A model generated the notes under the pieces. It saw nothing but the letters and a program-made list of their open reading frames with translations, had not been told where the DNA came from and did no database searches. A stretch of DNA of 64,000 nt from Takakia lepidozioides. Taxonomy: Eukaryota > Plantae > Bryophyta. Position numbers and translations under genes: made by a program. The stretch lies in NCBI GenBank assembly GCA_030704615.1, contig CM060733.1, forward strand, positions 56,544,001-56,608,000. The letters are read 5' to 3'. Positions 14,652-40,910 of the stretch are shown here, one piece after another (position 1 is the first letter of the stretch; every line of letters starts with the position of its first letter).

Positions 14652-14675
14652 GTGATGATCGGCACCGATCATCAC
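14652..14675. repeat. Single copy of the 24-bp palindrome in the intron starting at 14558
   Basis: GTGATGATCGGCACCGATCATCAC. Confidence 0.88.
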
Positions 14676-16029: not shown

Positions 16030-16150
16030 ACTTGGCGCGCGTTTAAGCTCGATGACGTGGAGTGAGCCTGGTGATGTGGCGTTCACTCAAGGTGATGTGG
16101 CGTGAGCGCTGTTGCGCTCACGCCGAGGCATACCTGGAAAACCTCTAGGG
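16030..16150 (+). other. Candidate transposon terminus (GC-rich motifs and a perfect 11-bp hairpin)
   Basis: GGTGATGTGGCGT occurs twice; hairpin GGCGTGAGCGC-TGTT-GCGCTCACGCC at 16099-16124; then GGAAAACCTC and CTAG (16145-16148). No matching left end was found. Confidence 0.4.
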
Positions 16151-16174
16151 GAATTGGGAAAAAAAATGACGTTT

Positions 16175-16813: not shown

Positions 16814-16869
16814 TGCAGATCTCGAATTGCAAAGCTCTTGGGAGCTTTATCTGATTGGCCTATACAACC

Positions 16870-17600
16870 AAAGGAATATGTCTTCCAAAATATTGGTGGA
16901 AGAGACAAATTCAGAGACAAATTTGCAGGTTGCAAGAAACAAAAGAGAGGTTAGTCCAAAGGAGTCCATGGAGCAGTCATCACAAGAACAATATGAAAGG
17001 AAGAAACATGTCACTTTGATAAGCATGCACCGAGTTTTTGTGGGATCAATCAACGTGTATGCAGTTGTCCTCGTGTTGCTGGCCGCTGTGACATATGCTG
17101 GTTTCATGCAACCTCCAGGGTCCTTTGATGAGGATGGATATATAAGAACCTATTCGGATTTCAAGCTGATTCTATATGTCTACTTCAACAGCTTCTCATT
17201 CTTTTTTGCTGTGGCTGATTTGTTGTTATGCTTAAGTGGAAGTTTTGCACCCTAAGCGTCTTGAATCTAGGAATGTTCATCCGTCCAAAGACCCGGCTAG
17301 GCGGCACAATCAGCAGAGTATGGTCAAATAAATACGAAGCGGCCCCAATCCACGAGGAGCTATATTGAGAGCAAGCCCTAACTCACCAACTGGCAGGATT
17401 TGTAGCTTCCACCCTCACCAAATTGGTATGGATTAACATCTTATTCACAGTCTCACTAACTTCCTGTGTGGCTGCCTTTGTGCTATTGTGAAACCAAATG
17501 GAGCCCAACAAATGCCAATGATTGTTACATCAGTTGTCGGCTCGTTGCCGGCTGCTGCTTATATTTTGTATTCATAATATGGTTGCGACTGATTCCATGA
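16870..17600 (+). pseudogene. PGG-domain (ankyrin-TM type) membrane protein fragment
   Basis: VVLVLLAAVTYAGFMQPPGS...YFNSFSFFFAVADLLLCL; further hydrophobic helices (WINILFTVSLTSCVAAFV) follow a stop/frameshift; no ankyrin part present. Confidence 0.65.
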
Positions 17601-20041: not shown

Positions 20042-23000
20042 GGACTGCTGACAGACTTGAGGGTTGGGATAAAATGTGCCATTTTTGCTAGGCGGTCGAC
20101 CACGACAAGAATAGTGTCAAAAGATTCAGAGCAGGGGAGATCTGTGATGAAGTCCATAGATAATGATGACCATGGGCCCTCGGGAATAGACAACGGCTGC
20201 AGCAGACCATATAGACAGTGATGTGGTGCTTTTGCTCGGGTACATGTATCACAAGTGTGGATGAATTCCTTTACCAACTTCCACATTTGTGGCCACCAAA
20301 AATCCCTTGAGATAAGCTCGGATGGTTTTAGTTATACCAAAATGACCAGCTGATGGAAGGTTGTGTCGTGCTTGAAGAACATGCAAGCGAAGTGGTCCTG
20401 GGTGGTACATAAATGAGTCCCAATAGTGGATAAGGCATTCTGACTCCTGAAATGCGCAATCTTCGTTCGTTCTTTGGCGTAGACGTCGTCTTATATCCTT
20501 CGCAAAATGATCATTTTTTAGACTTCCGCGAATCTTTGCAAGAAAACTCGTATCAAGAGGAATTTTACTTTCTATTGACATGAGACGCAATTGTTCTGGT
20601 TTCAGAATGATGGACTTCTGTTGATCGAATGCAGCACCTCCTTGTTTAGGAGCCAGATATGATCGGCGTGACAGTGCATCTGGCTTCCCCTGTTGGCTTC
20701 CTGGACGATAAACAATGATGAATTCAAAGTGAGATAGAAACATACCCCATCTGGCTTGTCGACGATTAAGTACTAGAGCATTCATGAAATATTCGAGATT
20801 CTTATGGTCGGTGTGAACTATGACCGTATGCCGAGCTCTTTCAAGAAAATGTCGTCATTCTTCGAAAGCATCGATGATTGCTAAAAGCTCTTTATCGTGG
20901 ATTTCATAGTTGATTTCTGCAGCCGAAAACTTCCTCGAATGGAATCCCGCAGGATGCAGTCGTCCGTCGTCTAAAATGGGAGCTGTAGTAAAAACGTTCT
21001 TCAATCTCTGGAAGGTTTTTGAAGCATTGTCGTCCCACTTGAATTTATCCTTTCCTATAAATCGTGTTAGGGGTGCGGCAACTTTTGAATAGTCCTTGAT
21101 GAAGATCCGATAAAAGTTTGCAAACCCCAAGAAACATTGCACGTCCCGGACCGAAGAAGGTGTATGCCAATCGACAATGGTTTGGACTTCCTTAGGGTCC
21201 ATTGAGATTCCATTATCGGAGATGATGTAGCCCAAGAATTCAACCTTCGACTGGTGGAAAAGACATTTTTCTAGCTTTGCATATAGTCTTTTCTCTCGTA
21301 ATTTGTCGAGGACGAGACGGATGTATTTTTCATGGTCTTCGGAATTTTTGGAGAATATCAAGATATCATCTAAGTAGATGACTACAAAGTCGTCAAGAAA
21401 TTCTCCAAATATGTCGTTCATCATATGCTAAAAAATTGTCGGAGCATTTGTAGACCAAATGGCATGACGTTGTATTCAAAATAACCATACCTTGTACGGA
21501 ACGTTGTTTTCCATTCGTTGCCTTCTTTAATTCGTACAAGGTTGTAGATACCCCTCAAATCGATATTTGTGAAGATTGTGGATTGACCAAGTTGTTCTAG
21601 AAGCCTTGAAATCAGCGGTAACGAACATCGATTTTTTATCGTGATTTTGTTGAGACCTCGATAATCCACGCACATTCGTAGAGTTCCATCTTTCTTTTTT
21701 ACAAAGAGTATTGGTGCGTCGGCAGGTGATTTAGAATGTCGTATGAAGTTTTTCGAAAGATTTTCGTCAATGTAGCTGCGTAGCTCCGTCAATTCATTTT
21801 GGGAAAGGTTGTAGATGGGTCCAAATGGTGGTTGAGCTCCTTCTTGTAGTTCGATCGCACAGTCATAGGGTCGATGCTGTGACAACATGTTAGCGTTGTT
21901 CTTTTCGAACACGTCTTTAAAATCATGATACTGTGGCGGTAGTGTTTATGTGATTTTGTCTTCCATATTTTTTGCAGGCGTCGCATAGATCATGAAAGAT
22001 GTACCTGTCTTCGTAGCTTGTAGAAATGCTCTTGCCCCCAATGAGTTTTGGTCGAATGAATCTCTGTCTTTGACGTTGTTTAGTCCTTGAGAATATTTTC
22101 CCTGTAGGCCAGTCGATATCTGGATTGTGTAAGTTAAGCCACGACCGCCCCAAGATTATTGGGTTCGAAGGTGATTTGATGATGTTGAGCACAATATTTG
22201 ACACAAATTCTCCGTGGTGTACTTCAAGAGGTTGAGTCTCCTGAGTCACGTCTCCTGAAGCGAGGGTACATCCGTCGATAACTTCACAAGTTGCAGAGTT
22301 TTCTTTCTTCATCGGCTCCAAATATTCTTGTTGAGCAAATTCTTTGTTGATGAAACATGGTATAGCACCACTGTCTACTAAAGCTTCTATATGTATTACG
22401 CGTCCTGTGATATGTATATCTATAGGGACCATGAAACTTGATACAGGGTCTGGGGGTAGGAATAGACCCTTTGTCTTCCTTTGATTCGTATTGCCCAGCC
22501 GCAAGGTCCCTATTGGGGCTGGACAACCTTGTTTTCCGCCTGGTCTGCTCCGTTGGTAGTAGCTATGCTTCGAACCTTGTACGTTCTTTTGTTGTGACAC
22601 TTGGATGCAATATGTCCAGGTTCTCTGCAATATAAACAAAGTCCTAGCAGTCGGCGACGCTGTTTTTCTTTTGGCGTGAGAGGTTTGAATCGCACAACAT
22701 CAATCTGCATAGGTTCGTATTCTCTCGTTGAACTGCTGGGTGTCGTTTGTGGAGTAGGAGGTAGGGTCGTATTGGGCGTCCAAAGGATCCGAGTCTTTCT
22801 TGTCGTCTTTCATATAGTTGATTGTCGCAGGCAATGGCTTGGCTAGTGATCTCCCTCAAAGTGGCCACCTTCAGCATGGTAAGCATGAGATCTTTTACAT
22901 CGTCTCGAAGTCCCCAACGAAATTGACTGATGTAGTTGTTTTCATTCCAATTTACATCGCATGCTAACTGTCAAAATTTTGTAGCATAGGTTGATGCAAG

Positions 23001-23340
23001 GCGAGCTCCTTGTCGTAGAGTTCGAATTTTTGTATCGGCAACTCTTTCACGATCAACTTCATCAAACGTTGCATTAAACTCCGCAAGAAAACTTTCAAAA
23101 TCATAAAGCAATGGTGCAATGGTGCAAACCATGACAAGGCGGTTCCTGAAAATAAGGTCCCTATCAATCCAACCTGGGAGGCACTGTCAGGGTACCGGTC
23201 ATGTTGCAAACGAATGAAGAGCCATACTTGTTGAACAAACCTTCGAAATTTTGAGCTTGTTCCATCAAACTTTTCAGGCATGCTGACATTGGGTTCTTTT
23301 GTTCGTTGTTGTACTGTTGCTAAGGAAGTTTCTCGGGAAG
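20042..23340 (-). mobile_element. Ty3/gypsy chromovirus (Tcn1-like) gag-pol 5' half, degenerate
   Basis: Gag MPEKFDG, zinc knuckle CLYCREPGHIASKC, protease ALVDSGA, RT ([12 protein letters not shown]), RNase H (YEIHDKELLAI), integrase HHCC ([10 protein letters not shown]...CDTC) and SMDFITDLP, truncated at AHFIPTLKSVSSP. Confidence 0.95.
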
Positions 23341-23499
23341 TTTCCTAACCGCTTATAGACGAAGTTTCTTAAGAAGTTTCTTTATTTTGCAGGAAGTTTC
23401 TTGGGGAGTATCCTAGCTAGCTTAGGGATCTTCTAGAAGGGTCTAGAAAGTTATAGAATGAAGTTTCTAGAAGCTTCTAAGAAGGTCGCAGATATATGG

Positions 23500-24953
23500 T
23501 GTAGTTTTATTTAATATGTCTGTGCCATAGGGTACATGAACCACCATGTGGAATATACCTTGATATGATCTCGGCTATGAACACCCAGTGAATGTAGCAA
23601 GCATTTGTGGATGTAGTTATAGATGCATCGAAGGAGAACGACAAGAGCTCGACACAATGATAATGAGCCTTCTTTCCTGTGGAAGGAACGTAAAAAAGAA
23701 GGTATTTTAGGTGAGTCTATGCATGAACGCCAAGTGACGCGATTTAAACATATGATATCTTTTGGTGACTCATTTTGATTACATGTGAGCAAATGATTGG
23801 TGTTGGTCCCTAGATGTGTTGACTAGGGGTGGTGTATATACACCACCCATAGGGGGGGTGGGTATACACTACACTACCTATTCCAAATACTATAATTACA
23901 CCCAAATATAGACAAATCAACAAATAATCATCATTAATGCATTAAACAAATTTCAAATTTCAAATATATGTACATTAATTATGGTGCTTTCTTATTGGCC
24001 TATATAGGAAATACACACATATCCCAAATGCTCTTGCGAAGATACAAGGACTATGCCTTCACAAATCGTGGTGACCCCAAGTCATTTTCATGAATTGCAG
24101 TTGGAGAGTTGGAGGCTAATGAAATGGAGCAAAGAGCCCAAGCTTCGTAAGAAATCTATGTAACTCGACATTATTTGTTCTAGGTGAGTACACTGTTGGG
24201 GCTTCCAAGGGGTATACACTACCATATTGGGGTGGTATGTGCACACCACCTTATATGTACATGTATATTGAGGAGAGGGTTGGTGCGTGCACACCACCCT
24301 ATTTCTATATATACATATTGAGGATAGGGGTGGTGTACACACATTACCCCATACAAATAATATAAATACAATAGGGATAGCACGTGTACACCACCCTGCA
24401 AGAAGCATATGAGAATTTATATACTTCGTTTCAAATACAAAAACATACGCTAGAGAGAGGGGTATGGTACATGAACAACCCCGTTAAACATACCTTGATA
24501 TGATCTCGGCTATAGACACCCAAAGAGCGTAGGAAACGTTTGTAGATGTAGTTGTAGATGCATCTAAGAGAGAATGACAAGAGAGACACAATGATAATGA
24601 GTCTTCTTTCCTGTGGAAGGAACATACAAAAGAGGGTATTTAAGTAAGTCTATGCATGAACGCCAAGTGACGTGATTTAAACATATGATCTTAATATCTT
24701 CTAGCGGCTCATTTTGGTTACATGTGAGCACATAATTGATGTTGACTGAGGTGTTGACTAGGGGTGGTGTAGTTAGAAAATTCCACAACACAATAATCAT
24801 TAATGCATTGGGCATATTTCAAAATTCAAAGTTCAAAACATGAATGTACATGAATGTACATTAATTATTATGCTTTCTTATTGGCCTACATAGGAAATAC
24901 ACACCTACCCCAAATGCTCTTGCAAAGAAGGACTACGCCTTCACAAATCGTAG
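23500..24953. repeat. ~940-bp tandem repeat in the gypsy 5' leader (unit 1 and the start of unit 2)
   Basis: TACCTTGATATGATC anchors at 23556 and 24491; unit 2 is interrupted by the hAT and resumes at 40242. Confidence 0.85.
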
Positions 24954-25159
24954 CCTAGTTATCATTCCTAACTTGACGTGGCACTGACACGTCCGAAGTG
25001 CGTCACGTCACGTCGAATCCGGACGTTTATCCATGCAATTTTTTTTTACATTTGACTTTTACGATTTACTTCTACACTTTGTAATGACATGGCAGCCACG
25101 GTGTAAAACAGACGTGGCCAATTATTAAAATTTATTAATTCTTAAAAAAAAATATGTCC

Positions 25160-25895
25160 ACCTATATTGGCGGTCGCATATAATTTATGATTTTAAAGAT
25201 AAAAGCGACCGCCCATATTGGCGGTCGCTTGTAATTTAATATTTTGTTAAATTAAGCGACCGCTTATAATAAGCGACCGCCGGTAATTTATTTATTTTAA
25301 AATGAAGCGACCGCCCATATTGGCGGTCGCTTGTATTGTATTATATTTTAAAATAAGCGACCGCCTATATTGGCGGTCGGTTAAAATTTATTATGTTTTA
25401 AATGAAGCGACCGCCCAGATTGACGGTCGCTCGCACTTTATTATATTATTATTATTATATCCTTGATATATTCTGTAAAAATACAGCGACCACCATGTGG
25501 CGGTCGCTTATTTTTATTTGTGTTCTTAAATAAAGCGACCGCCGTTTGGCGGTCGCTTCTTCAGTTAATTTTTGAAAAATGCAGCGACCGCCATTTTGCG
25601 GTCGTCGCTATTTTTGTTAATAAAGAATACAGCGACCACCATTTGGCGGCGGTCGCTCGATTTGATTTTGATTCTTAAATTAATCGACCACCGTTTGGCG
25701 GTCGCTTACTTAATATTTTTTTTTAAATGAAGCGACCGCCATTTAGCGGCGGTCGCTTATTTAATATTTTTTAAAAAAAAACAGCGACTGCCATGTGGCG
25801 GTCGTTCTTCTTGTTTTTATAAATATAGCGACCGCCATGCGGTGGTCGCGTGTTTTTTTTTTTCTTAGAAATCGAGGGACTCGCCGTGTGGCGTT
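25160..25895. repeat. Palindrome array A: AAGCGACCGCC-N4-6-GGCGGTCGCTT in AT-rich spacers
   Basis: More than a dozen copies; lies upstream of the kinase gene. Confidence 0.92.
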
Positions 25896-26481
25896 TTTTT
25901 TTTAATTTTTTAATTATGAAGCGGCGCCTGACTAGCCACGTGGTGAGGTGCCACGAGTCAGGAAAAACTAAACAAATGCGATGGAGGGAGGTGGTTTTGA
26001 ACCCTTGACCTCTCCCATGTGGGTGCGCGGGGCGAGGTGCGACTGGCCAATCGTGCCGCGCTGACACATGGTGAGGCGCCACTGGCCTGTCGCTCATTTT
26101 CAAGCATAATGTCATTTTTTTTTTTTTGGGGGGGGGGGGCTGATGGGCGCCTCTATAAACCATTCCCCCCTCCTTTTCTGATCACTTTTGCCCCTCTCGT
26201 GGTGTGGTTCCTTGGCATCCTATAGTCATTTCGGACTTCGTTGCTTGGTACTGCCAACGGGAGGTGCAAAGGCGATTATTTAGGGGGGGGAGAGAGGTTT
26301 TGTCAGTTTTCTATTGGTCAGTCCCACACACTTGTTCACGGTTCAATCATCGTATCACCATTTTGCCGTTTTCGGATCTCCGGCGGCCTGTTTTTTTGCA
26401 GAAACTACAAAGACACCATCCACACGCGTTCATTGCCGTTTTCTGAGGTTTTGGACCCTGTAGTGGGCAAAGGTTTATACA

Positions 26482-27935
26482 ATGTCGGGGGTTGTGAATT
26501 CAAGTTCTGGGGCGGGGTCGTCTGGGGGTCGGAGGAAGAGAAAACGTGCCCACGAGCGGGATAGCCAGATCAACAAGCCAGACTACCCGGGACTGGATGC
26601 CTTGGATAGGGTGAAAGAAGTGGTAGTGGATTATTTCAAGGGTAGGGACATGATGAGGCTGGAGAGTGCTTATGTCAGGCATGGATGGGAGGGGTTTCAG
26701 ATTTTCCAGCAAAATATGGAGAGAAAAATGACAAACGCTTTGGCGGGGGCTAAGTGGACGACAAACAGGGACAAACCAAAGTTCAATCGGTGGATCCAAA
26801 GCAAGGCGAAAGACGCCACATGGAATTTGAGGTAGCTAATGAAGACATGGAAGGGTAGAGCAACCGAGGGTCGAGTGCCCTCCGCCAAAGCTGAGTTAAT
26901 GCGGCGTGTTGAGTATTGGGCTTACTCGGCAAGTCAGAATTCACATCGCCGGACTAGGGTTGTCCCTTGGAAGGTGGGGTCATCGGGCGGGGGAGGCACA
27001 ACTGGTCTTTATTACCTGAACTCTACTGCGAATGTGATAGAGATTGGCCCTCACAAAGAAGGAGGGTATGCTAAGGTCCGTCAGTGTAGGATTGTTGGCG
27101 ATTCTAGAATACCGGAGCGTTGGGAGCTAGCGGGAAAAAAACCCAAGTCCAAAAATCCAGAAAAGGCGTTGAAACAACATAACGACGAGTGTTTGGCAGT
27201 GAAGTTCCAACATCCGGGTGTTATCTCATATTTTGCTGTGAATGCACGTGAGGTAGAGGGTTACACTCGTTGGTGGAATGGGGGAACAATACGCGACATG
27301 ATGAACCTTGACAGAAAATGGGACAACGATTCGGACAACAGGGTGATTTTGGAACAAAGGGGAACGGAAGCAAAGTTCCAGGAATGCGATCGCTTGCTTC
27401 GTTTCCGGAAAGTGCGCAGTAAACTTGCATGGGCACTAGTGTGCATCATGGATGTTGTCCACAAAAATGGTGTCCTGCACAATGACTTGTCCCCCGACAA
27501 CATCTTGTTGCATTTTCTAGATGACACCGAGGAGATCAAGATTGGGGTGTGTGATTGGGGCTTAGCCACCCCATTGGGCATACGCAAAGTCTCGTCGTAC
27601 CAGTTTGAAAACCAAGACAAGCTGGACCGAGAATTCGCGAAAAGATGGTGGGTGAAAAAAGATATTGCATCGGTTTTCAATGCGAATGTCACCCCCTCCT
27701 CCCAGGACATGACGTCGGAGGCATTTGCCTTGGGAAGATAGCCGTACGAATAAATGACGGCGCTCATTATGATCAAAGTATGTTTGAGGACCAATTTACG
27801 GGAGGTTGTTGGCATTCAATGCTACAAAGGTTGTACGACAACAACAAGAATGAGAGAGTCACATTAGCCCATATAGTACTTCGGTTCATGGGCAAGTCAT
27901 TCAGTTGGCCTGAAGACGTATATAGGACGGAGTAG
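26482..27935 (+). pseudogene. Intronless protein kinase with a basic NLS-like N-terminus (hAT cargo); one in-frame stop and one frameshift
   Basis: EGGYAKV Gly-loop, LAGK lysine, HNDLSPDN catalytic loop (27478-27501), DWG (27553-27561). The 26482 and 26839 ORFs are in frame across TAG 26833-26835; a frameshift near 27733 restores SEAFALGKIAVRI; N-terminal RRKRKR. Confidence 0.88.
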
Positions 27936-28017
27936 ACCATAGTCTCATAGATATGAGATTTGTGCAGTACAATGGTTCTTTTATGAAGACATAACTCAAT
28001 TTTGATCGTGCATGTAA

Positions 28018-29566
28018 TAAATAAAGTCCCATTGTAAATACTACATTGTATATGCTCGACCTTGGCACTTGTTATCGCAACATAAATGGTTTGTGTACTG
28101 GCTCATTGTTTGTATTTGTAATGTTCCAAGGTTTCGGATAGAGTTATGAGAAAACGATGTATTAGTTCCGTAAGAGTTAGACAACAAACGTCTCACATCT
28201 CATTCAACTGTGCGACACTACCATGAGAGGCATGGATCGGAAAGTAATAGGTGCACATGCGACCTCCGAACATTCGATACTAGATCCAGCGAATGGTTTA
28301 CTTGAACGTCTGAAGGTCGCATGTACACCTATTACTTTTTTATCCGTGTCACTCATGGTAGTGTCGACATTTGAATGAGATATGAAACGTTTGTTGTCTA
28401 ACTCCTATGGAGCCAATATATCATTTTCACAGTACCCTGTTAGAAAACATTGAAATATTCGAAGTTACAAACAGTGCCACAATACATGGCCGGTTTTGTT
28501 GAAATGACATCTGTGAGGTTCGAGCGTATGCAATTTATTATTTACAACGGAACTTTATTTACTCGGGGGACCGGTACTTTTGCTGGAGTGCAACTGATGG
28601 TGCAAGTTCTCTATTGATTAGAGCTGTCACAACCAATGTCAACAATCATATTTACGGTAAGGTGTTTCATGCTATTGTTGTTTCTCTGGCTGAATTCTGT
28701 AGTACTCTTTTTGCTATTCCCATGCCAACGTCCTCTGAGACTGTCATGTTCAAACGAATGTATCAGCCACCCCGGCCAACTTGTAGGCTGCAGCCACGGC
28801 CCACCTTAAATTGAATGAATTGGAGATTTTGTGCGAAGTTCCTAGTTTCATGTCCGTGGTGGCTGATACGGAATTCGGAATATGGTAGTCGCAGTGGACC
28901 TGATGTTGTTGGCATGGGAGTAGCAAAATGATTCCTAAATAATTCAGCTACATGAACATCGGCAGTATGACACACCTTGCAGTACATATAATTCTTGAGA
29001 TTGTTTGCACGGATTATTTGTGTTTGTGCTTTCAAGTGACAAACATTCCCGCCATGGTACAGAAGAGGTGGATTGGCCACATTAAACGATTGATGTGATA
29101 CCATTTCACAAATGTATCACATCGTACTTGTGAAAATGTATCACATGAACCGTTCTATGTGGCCTACGAGAGTCTTCGATGGGTACGAGATCAATGTGGC
29201 CTACGAGATCTGCTTCCACCAACAAACATGTGATCATTTCAGAAGCGCTTGAACTTTGAAGCGACGATGGGCAAGGTTCTTCATCCAGATGTTCAACATG
29301 CTGAGGTCTTCTGTAATGTCTCTTGCTTCGTAATGAGTGCTTCCCCAACTCTTATTTTCCAATGTTGATTTTCTATCTGGAACATATCCACAGATGCGTA
29401 TATAAAGGCTTAAAAATCCAAATGACCATCAAAACTGGAAGCTGGGGATGAGGCTTATAAAAGTGGAGATGGTCATTTGCTTATTTAAAGATTTCTGCAC
29501 ACATGTGTGGATCTGTTCCAGGTGGAGAATATCAACATATTGGATAAAGTGGACATAGAGAAGCAC
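28018..29566. other. Cluster of four consecutive long imperfect inverted repeats (candidate hairpin-RNA/pri-miRNA locus)
   Basis: Foldbacks at 28018-28561 (loop ~28278-28301), 28630-29007, 29075-29164 and 29337-29566; arms aligned by eye against their reverse complements. Confidence 0.8.
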
Positions 29567-29639
29567 CGTAACTACAAAAAGAGCTTCAAAGGGCATACTA
29601 TGTAACAGGTCCCAGTATAACCGAAGACGAAACCCCATT

Positions 29640-31008
29640 CATTCAATGGGCGATTGAATGGTTGCCCATCCAAATGATTTTTGTTTGCTTTCAATCTTTG
29701 CCACTATGTTCAACATACCATGTATCAGGTCCCGGACTTATATGAGATCAATCGAAATTCATTCGATGGCTCAACGGATGGTTGGCCATCGAAATGATTT
29801 TGGTTCGCTTTAAGACTTGGCCACTATGTTCAATGTGCCATGTAAGAGGCCCCAAAGTAACATGAAATCAATTGAAATTTTGTTCAATGGGCCAATGGAT
29901 GGTTGCCCATCCAAATGATTTTCGTTCGCTTTGAGACTTGGCCAGTATGTTCAATGTACCCTCTGATACGTCCTAGTGTAATACGAGATCAATCGAAATT
30001 CGTTCGATTGTCCAATGAGGCGTTCACTTGTCATCTGGTTTTTGTTCAATGCGAAAAAGAAATCATGCAATGCGTGCACGGCTATTGCACCCATTGAACG
30101 GATGTGGTTGAAGCCCCTATTTTGTCCCCATGTGCTGGAACATGTGTGGAGACACATTAGATGAATAAATCATTTGACTCCCCATCGACGCGTTCACCCC
30201 TCAAGCCATTCCACAATTTAATTGAATTTAAATTTATTTTAAGCCAATAAATAGGTTTGTACTGCCTTTCATTGGGGATTTCTGGCACGTATCGATTTTG
30301 TTTTTGGCTCAATTTTGTTCTGCGACTTCAAGCATCCTGCCGCTACTCCCCCGCCAAAATTTGGACCAATAAAAAATGCCCCCCCAAAAAAGTGTTCTCT
30401 TCGCTCACTATTGCATAACTCTCTACGAAGAGTGCATGAAGTTGAACACAAATCAAGTTTGGTGTGCAAAACAGGGAAGAAACTGTGGTTTTGGGTCCAA
30501 ATGAATTATGTTCGCTCCCACATTTGGCACGCACGTTGCATATGGCTACATTACACGCCCCATTAAAAAATAGAATGAAAAAAAAAATCGTGAGCATGCG
30601 AAACACAGTCCAACATGTCCCAAAGCAATAACAAATCCAACAGAATACATTCAACGGGTGAACGGACGATTGCCCATCCAAATCATTTTTGTTTGCTTTC
30701 AATTTTTGCCACTATATTCAACATACCATGTATCAGGTCCCGGACTAATATGAGATCAATTGAAATTCATTCGATGGCTCAACGGATGGTTGGCTATCGA
30801 AATGATTTTGGTTCGCTTTGAGGCTTGGCCACTGTGTTCAATGTGCCATGTCAGAGGCCCGAGAGTAATATAAGATCAATCGAAATTCGTTCAATAGGCC
30901 AACGGATGGTTGCCCATCCAAATGATTTTTGTTCGCTTTGAGACTTGGCCAGTATGTTCAATGTACCCTCTGATATGTCCCAGTGTAATATGAGATCAAT
31001 CGAAATTA
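29640..31008. repeat. Two blocks of three ~120-bp tandem units (29640-30000 and 30648-31008)
   Basis: Unit ...GGATGGTTGCCCATCCAAATGATTTT...GAGATCAATCGAAATTC; unit-specific variants recur in the same order in both blocks. Confidence 0.88.
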
Positions 31009-31461
31009 TTTTGTGCTTTGAGAACTTTGTGGGTATGTTTGTAGAAAGATCATAGATTTTGCGAAATGATTATGCAATACGCAGGGACCAGACGAAATTT
31101 GTTTGGAAGACGACCATTCGTAACTCGTTATAACTTATTGGTTAACATCAATTTTTCTTGTTCTCCAGCTTTCGGAGTTCATTGCAAATACCCACATACA
31201 CGTCATGGCCAAATATGACACCATTGTAAATTTGTTTACAGGGTGAATTACTTCTTCCCCATCACACGAGTGTAAATGTGAAGAAAACGCTCTCATGCAA
31301 TTGAAATTGGCAGGTGCTGCACATGTGCATTGTGTATTAACAAAATTGGTGATATACAAAATTGGCGAAATGCCATCACTGTGTTTTCCAACAATATTCA
31401 AGGTACAACAAAAATGCACATTGTATATGTACTTCGTTGCCAGTCATTAAAAGCTTAGTCG

Positions 31462-33159
31462 TCACTGTCCGAGGACCTTTGTGCCAATTGCCAGAGCTTG
31501 CGACCATGATCTCGTGGTCAATGAGGGGCCCAATAGCATGTGATCAATTCTGGCCTGCATCCGCCTACTTTGCGGTGAAAGTTGACTTTCTTCTTCACTC
31601 TCACGACGTGGCGGAGGTGGATCGAGAACAAGTACTCGGGCTGCATGCAAATCGGCAACAAAGGCGTCCACATCTGGCAATAGAGCCCCCGAAACACGAA
31701 GATAACGGTCTGTCCATAGTCGCATCCATTTCTCTACAACTGCCTTGATGGTACTTTTGAAACTTTCCAACTGCCTCTCGCGGGCCCTGTCATAATCATT
31801 GTGTCGTTTCGACGATAAGCCGTCTCGTACGCCTCATTCATCGGTTGACATATTATAGCATCTTCCATTTCGGACAACAACAAATGTCTCCCAATCGGTT
31901 GTCGGTCATACAATTCGTTCTCCTCTAGAACCAATTGATATACCCGGCAAACAAGCTTGATGTGATGCGGAGATCGTTATATCTTTGCATGTTGGCATAA
32001 ATGCTATCCACGCTACGGTTCGACATGCGTGCGACACGTTGCAAGCCTGACAGTGCCCACTCTACCCGTGCTTCTCTGGAGGCCAAATGGGTCGCCCATT
32101 GTACCCAATTCTCCCAATCACCATTCAATGGGACCCATGCCCGAATCTCCAGCGTTTTGGACAAGCACCATGCACTTGCCATGACAATGTCCCGTTCCTT
32201 TGTAACGCGGTCGACATCTAATATCGGGTTCATCTCGGATTGAATGACGACCCTCGAGCATTCCCCGGTTTCTAGTACTGGTTCTTTTCCTTTCCTCATT
32301 CTCTCATCCGCAATTCGCTTGTTCCTCAACCATGGTTTCATCGGCCACAGGGTCAAGGACGTCCGTAATTTCGTGAATGATGAGGTCAATACTACGATCG
32401 GGCATCGCAAACTCCGCGTCCATGTCTACGACGTTTGTTCAATCCACATTGTGGACAACAGTGCCTTCATTGTTTGGAGGAATGTCTTGCAATCTAGCTT
32501 CCAACTCGGCTATGCGCAGTGTTTGTCAGTCTAGTCAGTCCTGTAGGGTCTTGATTCGCTGGTCTCTTTCCGCCAGTTGTTTCTCTAACGTTGCAGCCGG
32601 TTGTATCCCGAACGTGTCCGGGATGTACTCTAAATCGTATAGCAACCTTGTGTTCCTCCTACTAGCAGTTTGTCAATTCACTGGACGTAAGAATATGATC
32701 TCCACGTACAACGTGGCTGCCAAGGTGTACGAGATTTTGCCCTTTAAGAGAGGTTGACCCCATAATGTGCAATGCACTTCATTCACCTTATGCTGGAAAT
32801 GCAAGTTCGTGCAAGACCTGGACTCTGCGTAATTGTTTCGGATTTGCACGTCATGCTTATCCAAAGGCCACAATTGATTGATGTGGTACCATTTCACGAA
32901 TTTTTTGCATTTTGCCATCGGCCACCTGAACTCTTCCGGAACATCCTCCCAGCCCTCTTCTGCTAGTATGCTAGGGTCACCATATACTTCCCAATTCAAG
33001 TCTTGCCTTGACCATTTGATTTTCGTAGGGGCGGTTCATGTTCATCGGGGTAATCTCTTCCAAGACGGTCATTCGTCCTGGCCCTCTGTCATTCTGCAAC
33101 AATCGGAGCAACACTAAACGAGGTTTATTAATACGACGTAACTCTAAACCCTTCCCCAT
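31462..33159 (-). pseudogene. Hypothetical hAT cargo protein with a coiled coil, several stops and frameshifts
   Basis: Collinear ORF pieces 32977-33159, 32673-32999, 31925-32410, 31734-31934 and 31462-31770; coiled coil LEKQLAERDQRIKTLQD...RIAELEARLQ; minus-strand TATA-like ATATAAG at ~33407-33413. Confidence 0.6.
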
Positions 33160-33460
33160 AAACGAGTTTGAGTATGTGTCAAAATAGTTCCTAAAAGCTG
33201 ATTTTGTAGAATAAAATGATCCTGGAAGCCAGATGAGGGCCTATGGGAGCATTCTGCAACGACTTCACAGAAATCGCGGCAAAAAAAACCCCCTACCCAA
33301 CCAATGGCCTCCTTCTCCACGAGACTACGTGTCGTGGAATAATAAAATGCCACGCACACAGAAGTTTGTGTGGGAGAGAAGTGAGGGGAGAATGAGCCTC
33401 CCTTGGCTTATATGCCCCCCCCCCCCTATTCCTCGGGCCACGTGCAGGGCGAACCTTCTA

Positions 33461-34983
33461 GAAGCGACCGCCAACTTGGCGGTCGCTCCAATTTCCGTAA
33501 AAAAAAAAAAAAAAAAAACGACTGTCATTAGGGGCGGTCGCTCCATTATCCGAAAATAAAATAAATAAGCGACCGCCAACATAGGCGGTCGCTACATTTA
33601 CAGAGACAATAAGAATTGAAGCGACCGCCAGTAATGTTGGTCGCTTCATATTCAAAACAATTAAAATAAAAGCGACCGCCAGTCATGGCGGTCGCTCCAT
33701 TTCCAACAAAATTTTAATAAAAGCGACCGCCAGTAGTGGCGGTCGCTGGATTTACAAAAAAAAAAAAACAATTGCGGCGACCGCCCGTAATGGCGGTCGC
33801 TCGATTTTTCCTCCAAAAAACAGAGAAGCGACCGCCATTCATTTTCAATTTTTTTAAAATAAAAGCGACCGCCAGTAATGGCGGTCGCTTCATTTTGAAA
33901 ACAATTAAAGTAAAAGCGACCACCACAAATGGCGGTCGCTCCATTTCCAACCAAATTTAAATACAAGCGACTGCCACTAATGGCGGTCGCTACAATTACA
34001 AAAAAACAACAATTGCGGCGACCGCCCCTAATGGCGGTCGCTCGTTTTTTCTCCAAAAAAAAAAAAAGCGACCGCCAGGAACGGCGGTCGCTTCATTTCC
34101 AAAATAATTTAAAAAACGACCGCCAGTATGGCGTCGCTTCATTTCCCAAATAATTAAATATAAAGCGACCGCCATGTATTACCCCCCCCCCCCCCTCATT
34201 CCTCGCTCCACGCGCATGACAGACCTCGTAGAAGCGGTCGCTCCATTTTTAAAAAAAAAACGACCGCCAGTAATGGCGGTCGTTCCATTTCCAAAAATAA
34301 AAAAATATAAGCGACTGCCAGTAATGACGGTCGCTGCATTTTAAAAAATAACCATTACAGCGACTGCCAGTCGCTATATTTTGTAAAAACAAAAACTGCC
34401 AGTAATGGAAGTGGAATGACTGGGAGCTTATATAGTCCTCCCCGCCTCATTCCTCGCTCCACGCGTAGGGCAGACCTTGTAGAAGCGACCGCCACCTTGG
34501 CGGTGGCTCCATTTCGCGAAAAAAAAAAAAAAAAAAAACGACCGTCAGTAATGGCGGTCGCTGCATTTAAAAAAAAAACAATTACAGCGACCCCCAGTAA
34601 TGGCGGTCGCTGCATTTATAAAAACAAAATAAACTTCAAGCGACCGCCTGTAATGGAAGTGAGGGGAGAATGAGTCCGAGCTTATATGCCCCCCTCCCCC
34701 AGCCTCACTCCTCGCTCTATGCGCAGGGCACACCTTGTAGAAGCGACCGCCACTTTGGCGGTCGCTCCATTTAAAAATCCCAAAATAACGACTGCAAAAT
34801 ATGGCAGTCAATCCATTTTCCAAAATTAAAAAAACAACCGACTGCCACTATTGGCAGTCGCTGGATTTTCAGAAAAAATAGAAATTAAAGCGACCACCAA
34901 TAATTTTACGAAAGACGATCGCTATTACATCGCGTTCACTGTATTTACAAAGAAAAATGCGACCGCCAGTGATGTCGGTCGCT
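33461..34983. repeat. Palindrome array B (internal), with four copies of a module ending ...GTAGAAGCGACCGCC
   Basis: Many GCGACCGCC...GGCGGTCGC copies; the module [CTTATA]...CCCC...CCTCGCTCCACGCG...AGAAGCG recurs at ~33405, 34170 (lacks CTTATA), 34425 and 34680. Confidence 0.92.
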
Positions 34984-35242
34984 GCATTAAAATAAAAATG
35001 AATGCAGAGTTGGAAGCATGACACAATTGTTCTCTATTCCACAAGCAAATCACCGAACACAAACATGAGCAAGTGACGGTGCATTTGGCCGACATTTTGA
35101 CTGGTATACACATGGGCAACATCTTTTATTTTCCAACACATACACAACAGCAATACAAATACTCATAGTGACAATGATCACACTGTAATTACTTCACTAC
35201 AGAAATATAAACATGTCCACTAAAATGTGCTGATGCATGCCT

Positions 35243-36023
35243 CACTACAACAGATCGCGGTATTTATGACAATATATATGACTATTCTGCAGTCATAAAC
35301 GGTACATATGACTTCTATGATTGTAAGTCGTGCAAACCAAGTGATATCTCTCACTGCAGTCATGTATATCATACTGCAGTCGCCGCTGCCGCGCCACGTG
35401 GCGAGGCGCAATTGATTTTTTTTTCTTCAAAATAAATAAATAAATAAAATATATGTCAGACGCCGCGTCGTATCGCATTGTGCCACGTGGTATAATATAT
35501 TTTATAATAATAAAAAAGACTACGCGGCAGCCCATCTAAGGTGCCGCGTACTATCCCTAGCTCGCCTACTAACCCTAGGGCCATCTTATCCATTTGATTG
35601 TATTTAGAGGAGTTTGAACCTCCAACCTCTTTACTATAAGAATTATAGTTCACTACCTGCTAACCAATACTCCCATTAGTCATTCATGTGATCATGTGGT
35701 GTTTAATTGTATTATACACACCAAATTACAAAATCCCCAGTAGTCATCATGACTATGTAACCTCATCCATGTACACTGTAGTCATGAAAATGACTATAGT
35801 GGTGAGCTAAATCTGGTCAATTGCCGTTGACCAGCCTTTCGCCCATTTCGGAGCCATGTAGTCATACAGACGACTACGTAAATAGTCGTTTATATGACTA
35901 CAGTCGTATGAACGATTGCGGGAGATCAAATTCATATAGAAACATGGTGCAGTCATGGTCAAAGTCAAGAAAACCATGACTACCACAGTTTGGCAGTCAT
36001 AATTACCGCGATCTATTGTAGTG
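35243..36023. mobile_element. Non-autonomous CACTA element (781 bp) nested in the hAT
   Basis: 28-bp TIRs CACTACAACAGATCGCGGTATTTATGAC / revcomp CACTACAATAGATCGCGGTAATTATGAC; 3-bp TSD CCT (35240-35242, 36024-36026); ATGACTA/TAGTCAT subterminal motifs. Confidence 0.93.
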
Positions 36024-36040
36024 CCTACATCTGTTTTGCT

Positions 36041-39000
36041 TCAATTCCTTCTACTGCTTCGACGGTGGGACGAAGAAGATCCTAATCCTAATGCTCCGAT
36101 GGATTGAAAATCCGGGTCACCCTCTACTTCACCACTATTGCCATGATCAGTGCTGGAATTGTCATCCCTATCTGACCTCATATGTCCAGGCCTTTGAATC
36201 TGCAAGCGACCTCGAACCAGATTTAGTTCTCTCTGAGGTCGACTCCCACTCCGGTCTTGAATACCATCCACGATATCTGGCCTGTTTGTGGGCCAATCGC
36301 CTACAAAAGGTTGGACTGTTCTCCGTCGTGTATGGACTTGGGACGCAATCGACGGTGGTCTCGAAGGAGGTACCGGAGGGGGGTCTGCCTGAGATGGACC
36401 GGCATTAGATGGTCTAGCATGTGAAGAACCACGGGTCTAATGCGCAACACGTTGGTTAAGATGAAGTTGTAGTGGCAGGTTGTCATCATCCGAGGCATCA
36501 ACTTCCGCCCGGTCCAATACAGCAGAATGATGCGTCCGTGTGGAAAACAGATCAACCCTGTTGCTCCTTAATGCCCGCTGTGTTGATGGGGAGCTGGATC
36601 GGTTTTGACATTGTGGTGGAGCTAGTCGTATCGGTGAGGCATGATCTCGTCCCGTCGACTGTACAATGGGTTCGACACCATCGTTTGTATGAACAGGGTT
36701 GCGTACGTCGCTCGGTCCTGGAAGTTCATCACCCCTAAGCTCCATTGGGACATTACCGGTGGCTTCAGCGTGTAGTGGGGGCGAGGGTTGACCCCAACTT
36801 CATTTTGAGGACCATGTTCTGGGGATGACACAATTGCAGCTTCACCTTCATCTGCGATACGCACTTCTTCAAGAAGGTCATAAAAGGTTGGCTGGATATA
36901 AACATCATCCTCTGTGAATGTAAACGGGTCATACACATTTTCGGGAACATCGTCGGATCTATCTTCACTATCGGAGGCAGATGATTCCCTCTGAGATGAT
37001 TCTCTCTGAGGCTCAGTATCGTCACTCATCGAATCTACTTCTGAAACAGAGTCTTCGGAATGCAAATTCCTCTCATACCATGCTGCAACATCATCCGTTG
37101 CCCTCTCACGTAGCAGTCGACAATTGATATACACATACACCAATTTGTCAGCCCTCGCGGGATTCAACCTGTTGCGAATCTTGTTGTGAATAAATGAGTA
37201 ACTGCTCCAATTGCGTTCGCAAGATGCGGCAGAGCACACTTGAACAAGAATACACTTCGCAATGGGAGCCAATGTTCTTACTCCACCTCCAATCAGATCC
37301 CACCATTCATTTGACAACATTATTGAGCTCTTTTGGATCCGGCATGTCCTAAAAAAGGTCACAGCGATCTGAGAAGCATTGGTACTCGGATATAGCTCTA
37401 TCTGCATGGTTCGGCGGAGCTAGTCGCATGAGCACTCGCACGAGGCCGGCCTTGGCATCAGCGTCGTCTCGGAGCATGGTATTGTCGAGCAAGAATATAT
37501 TGAGCAAAGCCCCCACATAAATGCAAGTCCGTTCGAACCATCCAACGACGGTCGTAAAATGCATCCTCAGCATTGTCCGCAAGTTCAGGTTCCAAGGAGA
37601 AGGGAGGATGCCTCAAAGATTGGACGTGCTTATCAAGATTTTGCATTAGTAACCATGCCTTGCCCATTACTAGTTGCTTTCCATCAAACTCCCGCAAGAC
37701 GATTAACACCGGCTCTACCATATAAACAAAGTTTTCACATTTCTTCCAGAAACCATCGCTGCGAATGCTATTTCGAACTTTTCGACTTTTGCCCAATGAC
37801 TTGGCTTTTCTGGAGTTCTGCAATGTCTGTGTGTACGCATCACATTGAGGATCGATAATGGTGTGCTCCAGACTGCTCTTCACCGTCACTAATCGATCCA
37901 CCATCAAGAAGTTAGTGACAAAACGAGTTTCGTCTGGATTGCAGAGGCTGTTTTTGGGTTCGTGCCTCCTATATATTGCTAAAGGAATGTGGTGTGTGCG
38001 GATGAACGACACAACAGTCTTCGCTCGCTTGACAAGTTGTTTCGCCCACTGTAATTTTCCTCAATCTTCCAAAATGAGATCAAGGATATAAGCAGCACAA
38101 CCTTGATAGTACATATGGGGATAACGTGCCAACAACATGTCTGCAGTGTTTCTCATGTTAGCGGCATTGTCTGTGCATATTTACACGATTCTATCACTTC
38201 CGACCTGTTCGATGAAGTCTGTCAATAGTTGACATTGATAACGTCCATATTTCTTTTCGCCGCTAGTGTCGACCGATCCCAAGAATTGTTCCCCAGCTGG
38301 ACATACGAGCATGACATTGAACAACGGTCTGTTTGTAACAGAACTCCAACCATCGGCACATATAGTGCTTCCATATTTTCTGATGCACTCGCCCGTCCTA
38401 TTGTTGACATTTTGGGTAAGCTCGATCATGGCGTCTTCTAACAATCAGTGCGGAGATTGTGATAAGTCGGAGGCACGTCCGTGGATTTGGACTCCGAGGT
38501 TGCTCTAACGGCAGAAACAAATGTCGGAAGCCTTGCCACATTAAATGGTATGTTGGCCTCGAAGAAAAAATGCGACCATTTTTTATCCAACTGTCTTTTC
38601 GTAGACAAGTTAAGACCTTCCTTCATGGATTGCTACCGTAATCCTCTACTCCGTTGAAGTGTAGGGGTACAAAGAGGTGTTGAAGCAGGTGTTGCTCCGG
38701 CACAACCCACTTGTCCAAGGACACCCGAAGCCTCACAAGAGTCGCCCTGGGTACCAATCGGGGCATCCTAACAGGAAGATGAAGTGTTCTACTCAGAGAT
38801 CATGTCCAGATCCAAAGACATTGGAATATTGCCTCCACACTGGGCAAAGTGGCTTTTTACCCGCATAGATGATTTATGGCATAAACCCACCCCAACGCTC
38901 TTCAGACCTTTATAGCCGAGGTGAGCGAGCAACCGATCCTTACGATAAGAAAGCCTTAATCCACATAGGTTGCACTCAACACTACCAGTGGCACTGACAG

Positions 39001-39085
39001 TGTTCGGGATTGTCGTATATCAAAGGCTTCATTCCTCCCTCATCTTCACCCAATATCCACTCCTCTGGGGCCTAGCGATGTAAGC
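36041..39085 (-). pseudogene. hAT transposase (BED zinc finger, DUF659 DDE core, C-terminal dimerization domain), degenerate
   Basis: VECNLCG...LLAHLG BED finger; FFFEANIPFNVA; TICADGWS (D1); ICTDNAANM (D2); ETRFVTNF; WW...CSAASCERNWSSY...RNRL (E). Confidence 0.93.
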
Positions 39086-39443
39086 AATAAAAAACAGTCA
39101 CCGGTAAATGAACGTGTTGTGAATGTAGAGTGCAATGCGATAGCCCAACACTTCTACACCTGTCAGCAACCCAAGTGGGTCGATGTGGGTTGTAGTGTTG
39201 AGCTTATACACAATCTGCTGAAGTGGCTTTGGTGGAAGCCACAACGGTAAAATGTGCGCACCCTCCTCTTGGGCTACACTCTCGTTCAATGGAAGAGAAC
39301 ATCCAAAGCAACCTCAAGTATTTGCGCAAAAAGAAGTGAGGAAAGGATGAAAGTGAAATGAAAGTGAAATGAATAAATGAGAAACCAATAGCACCCACCC
39401 GAAAAAGACTGTACAACCATATTTGTTATAATTTTGAAATTAA

Positions 39444-40042
39444 ACGACCGCTAATACTACGGTCGCTATTTCTATTTTTATGAAAAATATAATGCGACTG
39501 CCGGTATGGCGGTCGCTTCATTTGTTAATATATTTAAAATAAAACGACCGCCAATATGGTGCTCGCTTTTATTTTTAATATTTTTAAAAAAACGTGACCA
39601 CCAGTAAGGCGGTCGCTTTTAATCTTTATATTTGTCGTTGTTTTTTTAAAATATATATTTGAAATTATCCGACCACCATATGGCGGTCGCTTATTTTTTA
39701 TTTTTTATTTTTTTTGAAGTTATCCGACCACCATATGACGGTCGCTTGTTTTGTATATGTTTACAAAATTGTGCGACCGCCAATACGGCAGTCGCTTGTT
39801 TTTAAAAAAAAAATAGGCGACCGTCAATGCGACCGCCAATCCTTTTAAAAAAAAAAAAAAAATTGAAGCGACCGCCAAGATAGCGGTCGTTATTTCTTTT
39901 TTAATTCAAAAATAAAACGACCGCCAATGCGACCACCAATCTTGTTTTTTTTTAAAATAAATTGAAGCGACCGCCAATTATGGCGGTCGCTATTTCTTTT
40001 TTAATTTTGAAAACAAAGCGACTGCCATAATTGGCGGTCGCG
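39444..40042. repeat. Palindrome array C, upstream of the transposase (right subterminal region)
   Basis: Repeated GCGACCGCC-N-GGCGGTCGC in AT-rich spacers. Confidence 0.92.
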
Positions 40043-40241
40043 TTCATTTTGTTAATTTTCAAAATGTATTTGTCACCGTCACCGTGTCGGCAACGTGGTT
40101 GCTTAAGTAGTAATATTTTACCTGGTACTATTTTTACCAGAATATTCCTCGAACCTGACGTGACGGAGGTCCCGTCAACATTAGGTCTGACGTGACCTGA
40201 CGCTGACGGACGGACGTGACGCCGATAACCGGGAATCGTAG

Positions 40242-40910
40242 TGACCCCAAGTCATTTTCATGAATCGCAGTTGGAGAGTTGGAGGCTGATGAGATGGAGC
40301 AATGAGCTCTAGCTTCGTAACAAATCTATGAAGCCCAACAATCTTTGTTCTAGATGAGTACGCTGTTTATGTTTGGGGCTTCCAAGGGGGTGGTGTACAT
40401 ACATTACCCTACGTGAGCGAACAGTTTATGGTTGGGCTTTCGTGGTGATTGTGTACATTCGCTACCCTATGGGAGTGTTTTGTGCACACCACCCTATTTC
40501 CATACATATTGAGAAGCTGGGTGGTGTACACGCACTACCCTACATTGAGGAGAGGGGTGATGCATGCACACCATACTATTTCCATATATGTATTGAGGAG
40601 AGGGATGGTGTACACACACTACCCTATACATGTAATGTGAATACAGTAGGGATACTGCGTGTTCATCACCCTACAAGAAACATATGAAAACTTATATACT
40701 TTCAAATACAAAAAATTAGGGTGCATACACCAACCTGTAGAACATACCTTGATATGATCACGGTTGTAGATCACACCCAAAGAGCATAATAAGTGTTTGT
40801 GGATGTAGTTGTAGGTGCGAAGAGAAGATGGCGAGAGAGACACAAAAATAATAATTACTCTTTCCTCTAGAATGACTATACATAGAGGATATTTTAGGTA
40901 AGCATATTAC
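40242..40910. repeat. Continuation of the ~940-bp gypsy-leader tandem repeat (rest of unit 2, partial unit 3)
   Basis: GTGACCCCAAGTCATTTTCATG matches 24071 onward; third TACCTTGATATGATC anchor at 40745. Confidence 0.85.

Follow-up and report, generated by a model that had tools for sequence, protein, structure and literature searches.

The window, a stretch of 64,000 nucleotides of the Takakia lepidozioides genome (contig CM060733.1), contains a 15.3-kb hAT transposon at 24954-40233, which carries a protein kinase gene and a second cargo gene (its partner) besides the transposase. Its 8-bp target-site duplication (TSD), short terminal inverted repeats (TIRs) and DDE transposase with a dimerisation domain place it in the hAT superfamily. 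We give about an even chance to the reading that it is one decayed, full-length member of a multi-copy hAT family with two long-resident accessory genes, which in intact copies would likely act jointly on host silencing proteins and keep the element expressed, a putative role. The features of the element are as follows, with the basis of each in brackets.

24946-24953, no strand: left TSD, 8 bp (flank comparison)
24954-24963, plus strand: left TIR, 10 bp, 8/10 identical to the right end (end comparison)
25160-25870, no strand: palindrome array GCGACCGCC...GGCGGTCGC, ~50-bp period, subterminal, upstream of the kinase (repeat analysis)
26482-27935, plus strand: atypical Ser/Thr-type protein kinase, intronless, ~484 codons, pseudogene (Pfam, profile, AF2)
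28018-28561, no strand: hairpin H1, 544 nt, z -21.8 (folding versus shuffles)
28630-29007, no strand: hairpin H2, z -11.0 (folding versus shuffles)
29075-29164, no strand: hairpin H3, pre-miRNA-sized, z -7.5 (folding versus shuffles)
29362-29538, no strand: hairpin H4, z -8.9 (folding versus shuffles)
29594-31007, no strand: tandem repeat, ~1-kb unit with three 120-bp subunits, ~1.4 units (repeat analysis, depth)
31462-33159, minus strand: second cargo gene, ~560 codons, broken, start presumed (ORFs, profile)
33460-35000, no strand: internal array with the same palindrome as the element ends, upstream of the second gene (repeat analysis)
36041-39043, minus strand: DUF659-type hAT transposase, ~1000 codons, broken, start presumed (Pfam, alignment)
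39430-40070, no strand: right palindrome array, subterminal, upstream of the transposase (repeat analysis)
40224-40233, minus strand: right TIR (end comparison)
40234-40241, no strand: right TSD, 8 bp (flank comparison, run joints)

The element is bounded by an exact TSD, AATCGTAG, at 24946-24953 and 40234-40241, and a paralogous repeat at 23909-24212 aligns with the joined flanks without a break at their junction (80% over 332 nt, E 8e-86); in this in-window comparison the empty site holds a single copy of the TSD 8-mer. The earlier note had fixed the boundaries by TSD, TIRs and in-window empty site, and these are confirmed; the empty-site joint 24945>40234 is also contained in sequencing runs X1 and X2, which are possibly the source sample of the window itself, with the eight letters fitting either side. 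The TIR is 10 bp long and imperfect (8/10, CCTAGTTATC versus CCCGGTTATC), both mismatches being one C>T/G>A pair, and is followed inward by a CACGTC-rich stretch that is loosely alike at the two ends. The terminal motif does not recur anywhere within 24954-40233. The layout described before, with the kinase on the plus strand, then hairpins (now four), and the second gene and transposase on the minus strand, also stands. A neighbouring element is present in the window at 10-17 kb; its interpretation as a methyltransferase/ParB or partner-like element received no support from the databases.

The transposase matches PF04937 (DUF659, E 2e-14) and PF05699 (Dimer_Tnp_hAT, E 3e-5) and is 42-56% identical to 17 intact hAT transposases. 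Its DGW, TDN and CERN motifs are kept, CxxH has decayed to CxxY, and it ends in a long, low-complexity, Ser/acidic C-terminal tail; transposases of this kind are mostly ~1000 aa, with long low-complexity tails. A 1902-nt contig from X7, a run tentatively taken as RNA, aligns to the transposase and skips 201 nt, either an intron or an indel.

The kinase is assigned to Pkinase by Pfam and is intronless, profile positions 4-416 and 414-482 being contiguous. Its RRKRKR patch, HNDLSPDN and DWG are kept and APE is absent, as had been described for this copy. Among its near-full-length relatives APE occurs in 17/59, with VDP in its place in many others. The remaining catalytic positions are nearly invariant in the 59 relatives of at least 380 aa: K in 58/58, alphaC-E in 57/58, HND in 57-58/59, N in 58/59 and DWG in 56-57/58. 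The AF2 model (pLDDT 83) has a protein-kinase fold and matches ULK/FGFR/JAK-type kinase domains. By sequence profile, solved kinases reach no better than E 5e-5.

All 110 matches to the kinase come from one divergent, odd family and are at most 49% identical to it, with no close cellular kinase among them; the near-identity to a host gene that would have spoken against dedicated cargo is thus not observed among these matches. In Ceratodon, one cluster holds 126 near-identical dispersed members, of which the 15 listed are spread over autosomes, U, V and one scaffold (7/15 on U/V). Prokaryote genomes gave two weak, short matches. A viral origin of the kinase is a lead: giant-virus kinase clusters rank next to it by Atlas features (0.97), yet no viral contig encodes a relative, with 0 confirmed among 106 pattern stretches. 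Contigs of a diverged kinase relative also occur in X7 and X8, both tentatively taken as RNA runs; neither these nor the X7 contig over the transposase are counted as expression, and for the stretch from kinase to partner the listing gave no RNA run.

The partner has a conserved N-terminal domain at 33011-32616 and a coiled-coil-like stretch, judged by eye. The domain belongs to a 120-aa family of 151 clusters at 50% identity, which surfaced only with HMMER; word-based searching from the fragment of the partner gave zero matches. Its AF2 model has a pLDDT of 92, and nothing corresponding to it was found in Pfam, NCBIfam, PDB sequences, Foldseek PDB, viral libraries or Atlas, the wide search with VIA giving at best Z 3.2 (rmsd 4.1, 73 aligned). 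By these searches the family is new, and the absence of matches falls short of proving a new fold.

At the C-terminal end, 6/9 partners of at least 600 aa carry a RING-H2 domain (C3H2C3, ubiquitin-ligase-type), and the RING region is present in the kinase-adjoining partners of loci L005 (E 2e-63) and L015 (E 3e-51). The RING/C-terminal profile has no match in the window, so the window partner is without a RING, as is that of L002. Two collinear, non-significant matches link the C-terminus of the window partner to the post-RING region of another partner, P0202. Pfam finds no Ulp1 domain in the partner, and the cargo searches detected no nuclease or known toxin domain.

Between the kinase and the partner lie the hairpins, which have no Rfam match at the gathering threshold. 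One arm of H3 (29088-29113) is identical to the second gene at 32876-32901 in 24/26 nt, so RNA from the plus strand would be antisense to the partner mRNA. The target score is 2.0 (lower is better), a value that none of the 100 shuffles of this comparison reached, and one of all 720 shuffles. H1, H2 and H4 match the genes of their own element no better than shuffles, 11/12 comparisons in the window being negative. H3, a stable hairpin by predicted folding, is a putative miRNA-type precursor. At L002 the hairpin has no match to the L002 genes (best score 7.5), so the H3-type link is not conserved there.

The internal array at 33460-35000 includes duplicated promoter-like blocks. At L001, L002 and L013/L014 other palindrome arrays stand ahead of the kinase or the partner; the palindrome array heading each gene is family-specific. 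Palindromic subterminal arrays are the usual transposase-binding sites of hATs, and the arrays therefore need no anti-silencing reading. The tandem repeat at 29594-31007, which the earlier note had not mentioned, reaches a depth of 1.3 million, far over the rest of the element; it is probably a high-copy repeat in its own right or a derivative of one.

The cargo had been called near full-length. This is correct in that both genes are full-length, but the kinase, the second gene and the transposase are all pseudogenes here, which had gone unmentioned. The kinase has a stop at 26833-26835 and a frameshift near 27730-27738, the second gene several stops and frameshifts, and the transposase six stops in aligned segments and at least three frame changes. 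In X1, 97% of the depth has Gln in place of the kinase stop, which is hence private to the window copy; an extra base carried by loose ends at 27729-27730 suggests that the frameshift is private as well. Of 28 private kinase substitutions scored, 11 are synonymous and 17 are not, where neutrality predicts 34% synonymous, and 9/24 private C>T/G>A transitions fall in CHG context, compared with 57/458 sites. These private changes look like neutral methylation decay. Together, the private stop, the signs of a private frameshift and the neutral-type substitutions indicate that decay followed insertion.

Summed contig depth in X1, which is not a copy number, is 20,000-60,000 in the gene bins and 450-620 in two flank bins, and X5, from another study, has the same step between element and flanks. 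The kinase, second gene and transposase share a similar high depth, about 40-80x that of the flanks, and so were amplified together; the kinase is not restricted to one copy, the other outcome that the earlier note had named as fatal to its proposal.

Linkage in relatives was assessed at 36 metagenome kinase loci (L001-L036). Of these, 14 (L023-L036) are weak generic kinase matches and were left out of the counts, and the duplicates L013/L014, L016/L017 and L020/L021 were merged, giving 19 distinct loci. Five of the 19 adjoin a partner or a hAT transposase (partner at four, hAT at two, all three genes at L014), with the pair of kinase and partner alone at L002, L005 and L015; the pair is tightly linked in variable orientation. 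Neither partner nor transposase is near the kinase at the other 14/19 loci, seven of which are on stretches of 8.6-20.6 kb. The linked kinases occupy three distant parts of a quick-method tree that is midpoint-rooted with no outgroup and has the window kinase on a long branch. The proposed linkage of kinase and hAT in other species is therefore seen to recur in distant relatives, together with the second gene. A weak sign in the same direction is that kinase and partner/hAT record sizes coincide at 6261, 5439 and 27639 (P ~0.025 for at least three). Intact members are found at L001, at L002 and among the Ceratodon models. The divergent family, the amplified copies and the recurring linkage support the proposal that the cargo consists of dedicated accessory genes and not of recent captures.

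In intact copies, the transposase would bind the end arrays and cut and paste the element, making the 8-bp TSD, as in the textbook hAT mechanism. Basic N-terminal patches, found in 19/33 kinases and 27/41 partners, likely take both cargo proteins into the nucleus. There the new domain of the partner would bring the module to the arrays or else to a target of the host, which the kinase would phosphorylate. In RING-bearing lineages the partner may then ubiquitinate it; as the window copy and L002 are without a RING, ubiquitination cannot apply in every lineage. A small RNA made from H3 may damp expression of the partner. Only tentatively do we extend this to an ancient giant bryophyte hAT lineage with a phosphorylate-and-ubiquitinate kit, in which a kinase family specific to transposons is joined by a RING E3 ligase whose targeting domain has a new fold, the kit being driven by family-specific palindrome arrays and tuned by the element's own microRNA cluster.

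The same dedicated cargo might instead regulate the element itself and attack no host silencing factor, the kinase phosphorylating the Ser/acidic tail of the transposase or the partner, the partner acting on the arrays either by repression or as an adaptor, and H3 closing a negative feedback. The array ahead of each of the three genes, the long low-complexity tails of the ~1000-aa transposases and the antisense match of H3 to the partner, equalled by none of its 100 shuffles, agree with this, but a RING ligase and a kinase kept over deep divergence would exceed the usual needs of autoregulation, and the H3-type match is missing at L002; we consider it unlikely. More doubtful is a poison-antidote pair favouring the spores or gametophytes that inherit the element. 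Spok genes in fungi are kinase-domain spore killers, and the tightly linked pair of variable orientation, a host that is likely haploid-dominant, the share of listed Ceratodon copies on U/V and a small-RNA-like hairpin aimed at one of the pair would fit such a system. Hundreds of dispersed copies would, however, blunt single-locus drive, no nuclease or known toxin domain was detected, and U and V, at about 110 Mb against 16-29 Mb, are the largest contigs in the list, so that many copies are expected on them.

Slightly less probable still is that both genes ride along passively, as host genes that were captured a single time, were amplified by hitchhiking in Pack-type fashion and are useless to the element. 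At seven long loci a kinase relic does stand without a transposase or a partner close by; against this stand the lack of a close cellular kinase among the matches, two full-length intronless genes with catalytic residues nearly invariant at 30-49% identity, and a linkage that recurs across the kinase tree. That the pair is a mobile unit of its own, inside or beside an ordinary hAT, is very improbable: the internal array at 33.5-35.0 kb could be what is left of an end and the pair-only loci would suit such a unit, but there is no internal TIR of the kind that the nested element envisaged in the earlier note would have, depth is alike over all three genes, the true ends carry the same palindrome as the internal array, and no other transposase family was found in 175 ORF fragments (27 + 148) of 14 kinase loci. 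Long-resident accessory genes acting on host silencing thus remain the preferred reading.

To our knowledge, few eukaryotic DNA transposons carry dedicated genes other than a transposase; in plants the examples are VANC/KIU, whose action is on DNA methylation. With autonomous plant hATs of the Ac/Tam3 type the element shares the 8-bp TSD, short TIR, subterminal arrays and DDE transposase with DGW/TDN/CERN, but it differs by its 15.3 kb, two extra conserved genes, third internal array and hairpin cluster, and its TIR starts with CC, whereas that of hATs usually begins with CAG/TAG. Pack-type transposons carry host gene fragments and similarly have non-transposase coding sequence between their TIRs; here the cargo is full-length, intronless and deeply conserved, is accompanied by the element's own transposase and has no close donor among the 110 matches.

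Some fungal DNA transposons are reported to carry accessory enzymes, IS3EU an alpha-kinase with TET/JBP and hAT7 a TET, so that in IS3EU, too, a gene for a kinase adjoins a further accessory gene (PMC12730594). The present element differs from these TET/JBP elements in its conventional kinase fold, plant host and 8-bp TSD (PMC12730594), and Pfam finds neither TET/JBP nor alpha-kinase in it. VANDAL elements (MuDR; VANC/KIU) are reported to be likewise large autonomous plant DNA transposons with extra genes, family-specific arrayed short motifs and an accessory protein made of a conserved domain and a variable region (PMC5735166, PMC13317346); VANC motif arrays are described from non-coding sequence, some of it ahead of genes (PMC5735166). 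Compared with VANDAL as presented there, the transposase here is hAT and not MuDR, the motifs are palindromic and not in the same orientation, and the partner has no Pfam match and no Ulp1 (PMC5735166, PMC13317346); of the VANC system only the motif-array anatomy is seen here, and anti-silencing is putative. No kinase-carrying plant hAT was found in the literature searched, though Repbase, subscription papers and supplements may hold such families, and PMC13547354 has zero whole-word occurrences of hAT, kinase, RING or moss.

Scores of Ceratodon "protein kinase" models (the 126-member cluster) are probably transposon cargo, and their reclassification affects kinome counts and sex-chromosome gene content. 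The partner contributes a domain with a confidently predicted fold and no structural match. Mosses are transformable and intact members exist, so the function is directly testable. A conserved kinase with a RING-type partner would mean that transposons use host-style signalling and protein degradation; if true, it would give them a virus-like route, by way of protein modification, to anti-silencing or to drive that is undescribed in plants.

The hAT transposon in the window is a real element of about 15 kb.

Features of the element (window coordinates, strand, description)
24954-40233, hAT element, flanked on both sides by AATCGTAG
Left end, palindrome array 1, before the kinase
26482-27935, plus strand, kinase, intronless, full-length against the family profile
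Inside the element, palindrome array 2, before the second gene
33159-31462, minus strand, second gene (the partner), broken at several points
About 39043-36041, minus strand, transposase, matching DUF659 and the hAT dimer domain
Right end, palindrome array 3, before the transposase

The limits that the earlier note drew from a target-site duplication, terminal inverted repeats (TIRs) and an empty site hold. The 8-mer lies on both sides, the 10-bp TIR has two mismatches, and in silico excision of the element with one 8-mer yields a junction that aligns with the paralogous repeat 23909-24212 (80%, 332 nt). This joint recurs, its two sides overlapping by 8 letters, in contigs of the sequencing runs X1 (n=2) and X2 (n=3) and was not found among those of X5 and X7. 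Cut-and-paste mobility is indicated by the hAT anatomy. The palindromes have 9-bp arms, GCGACCGCC...GGCGGTCGC, and a period of ~50 bp.

The transposase shares 42-56% identity with 17 intact transposases (776-1148 amino acids) and keeps the DGW, TDN and CERN motifs; it carries six stops in the aligned segments, several frame changes and a CxxH to CxxY change. The kinase has one stop and one frameshift. With all three genes broken, the window copy is dead, unlike its family.

The kinase had been described as intronless and divergent, and its contiguous full-length match to the family profile and its 110 relatives (E 1e-5 or better, 32-49% identical, full-length members ~480-525 amino acids) agree. 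The closest named relatives are from the moss Ceratodon purpureus, which points to a bryophyte-like host. Its profile matches solved kinases weakly (best E 5e-5), and its AF2 model (pLDDT 83) matches protein-kinase domains at no more than 22% identity among the matches listed. In 59 relatives of at least 380 residues, the catalytic Lys, the alphaC Glu, the HND..N and DWG motifs already read in the window, and the family signature WWNGG are nearly invariant; APE is present in 17. One cluster has 126 members at 90% identity, and the 15 members listed are Ceratodon gene models on chromosomes 1, 2, 3, 4, 12, U and V and a scaffold, a spread that is the pattern of transposon genes. Giant-virus kinases rank next after the family by Atlas features, and no relative was found on any viral contig searched. 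P0008, a family kinase annotated to a 'Bacilli bacterium' MAG (2.9-kb contig), nests among plant-type members and is therefore probably contamination.

Open-reading frames matching the N-terminal 120 residues of the partner adjoin kinases at other loci, and a search with a two-sequence profile gave a family of 151 clusters at 50% identity. The predicted fold of this domain is confident (pLDDT 92), with no match in Pfam, PDB, the viral structure library or Atlas. Six of the nine members of at least 600 residues carry a RING-H2 pattern at the C-terminal end, after a coiled-coil-like region; it is present in the partners at metagenome loci L005 and L015 and was not found in the window's partner or that of L002.

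Summed contig depth in X1 is 20,000-60,000 over gene-bearing bins versus 450-620 in the flanks, though summed depth is not copy number and X1 and X2 may be the window's own sample; values are lower across the palindrome arrays, whose repeats are skipped. The step recurs in X5, which comes from a different study (12-59 against 0.7-1.6, leaving the 1-kb repeat aside), and the kinase is thus not confined to this copy. Against the summed depth, single X1 contigs at ~40-85 suggest, roughly, hundreds of copies. Some copies in X1, X2 and X5 lack a 784-bp segment (35237-36022, 5-bp microhomology). Where the kinase has its stop, C (giving Gln) makes up 97% of X1 depth, and loose contig ends with an extra base suggest that the frameshift, like the stop, is private to the window copy. 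The 28 scored differences from the kinase majority include 11 synonymous ones, leaving 17 that are not (neutral expectation 34% synonymous); 24 are C>T or G>A in the window copy, nine of these in CHG context. The lesions look like methylation decay of a previously open gene, later than the insertion of the element.

A scan of about half of the metagenome collection gave 36 loci, with 22 family kinases (19 after merging duplicates). The partner adjoins the kinase in four of the 19 (L002, L005, L013/L014, L015) and a hAT transposase lies near it in two (L014, L018), so that the linkage recurs; L014 has all three, and gene order and orientation vary among loci. Neither partner nor transposase is seen at 14 loci, seven on contigs under 6 kb and seven on contigs of 8.6-20.6 kb. 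Among 175 ORF fragments taken from 14 of the kinase loci, no other transposase family appeared. L001, L002 and L013/L014 have their own, differing palindrome arrays before kinase or partner. A quick tree of 70 kinases places the linked ones at three widely separated positions: the window's kinase is alone on a long branch, L002 sits in a clade containing Ceratodon, and L005, L014, L015 and L018 lie in another. The association would thus be old, the root being set by midpoint.

Kinase and partner are very probably dedicated cargo, and conserved families, co-amplification and recurring linkage favour this over recent capture; that the cargo merely hitchhikes passively is distinctly unlikely. A nested unit of kinase and partner is highly improbable, the TIR motif occurring within the element at its two ends only. 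The favoured reading of their role, with about an even chance, is that the two genes act in anti-silencing, where phosphorylation by the kinase would counter silencing and RING-bearing partners would add ubiquitination. This reading is by analogy: VANC systems have family-specific motifs arrayed in non-coding regions (PMC5735166), like the element's palindrome arrays, and fungal transposons carry TET/JBP and alpha-kinase genes (PMC12730594), comparable to its accessory genes. Autoregulation of the element by its cargo is a weaker possibility, and a poison-antidote drive is unlikely.

Four hairpins (z -7 to -22, no Rfam match) lie 3' of the kinase. An arm of the third, H3 (29088-29113), matches the conserved domain of the partner (32876-32901; 24 of 26 bases) in antisense orientation to the partner mRNA. 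The target score of 2.0 was reached by none of 100 shuffles for this pair and by 1 of 720 overall; none of the remaining 11 pairings of hairpin and gene gave a positive result. Between its partner and kinase L002 carries a 383-nt hairpin, without a match of this kind. The segment 29594-31007, a 1-kb tandem unit with 120-bp subunits, reaches a depth of 1.3 million, 20-40 times that of the element's other parts. Its units join head to tail (30990>29993), and it is possibly a satellite or a very abundant derivative.

Elsewhere the window resembles plant DNA, with domains of PPR, F-box/kelch and PGG type and fragments of Ty3/Gypsy pol.

Features outside the element
1852-3219, minus strand, F-box/kelch ORF
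7918-8454, SH3_Tf2-1 and chromodomain fragment of a chromovirus-type retroelement
11551-12202, plus strand, ORF piece with a DGNQR motif
14555-15347, plus strand, ORF piece within a second decayed element
16773-17255, plus strand, PGG-domain fragment
20250-23350, minus strand, decayed Ty3/Gypsy pol and gag fragments
23500-24950 / 40240-40900, repeated flank on either side of the hAT
45516-46214, plus strand, Ser/Pro-rich repeat ORF, extensin-like by eye
53900-60000, PPR fragments, duplicated and inverted, broken, clustered

The second decayed element (10400-17000) has a palindrome array of 15 copies, GTGATGATCGGT..ACCGATCATCAC. Its two ORF pieces may resemble a ParB-like domain and the C-terminal part of an N6/N4 DNA methyltransferase, a reading without support from Pfam, NCBIfam or PDB. 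The repeat at 23500-24950 / 40240-40900 is the hAT insertion site.

No description of a kinase/partner hAT family was found in the literature searched, which lay outside Repbase and supplements. The window newly provides a complete bounded element, co-amplification data, a partner family with RING and an antisense hairpin.
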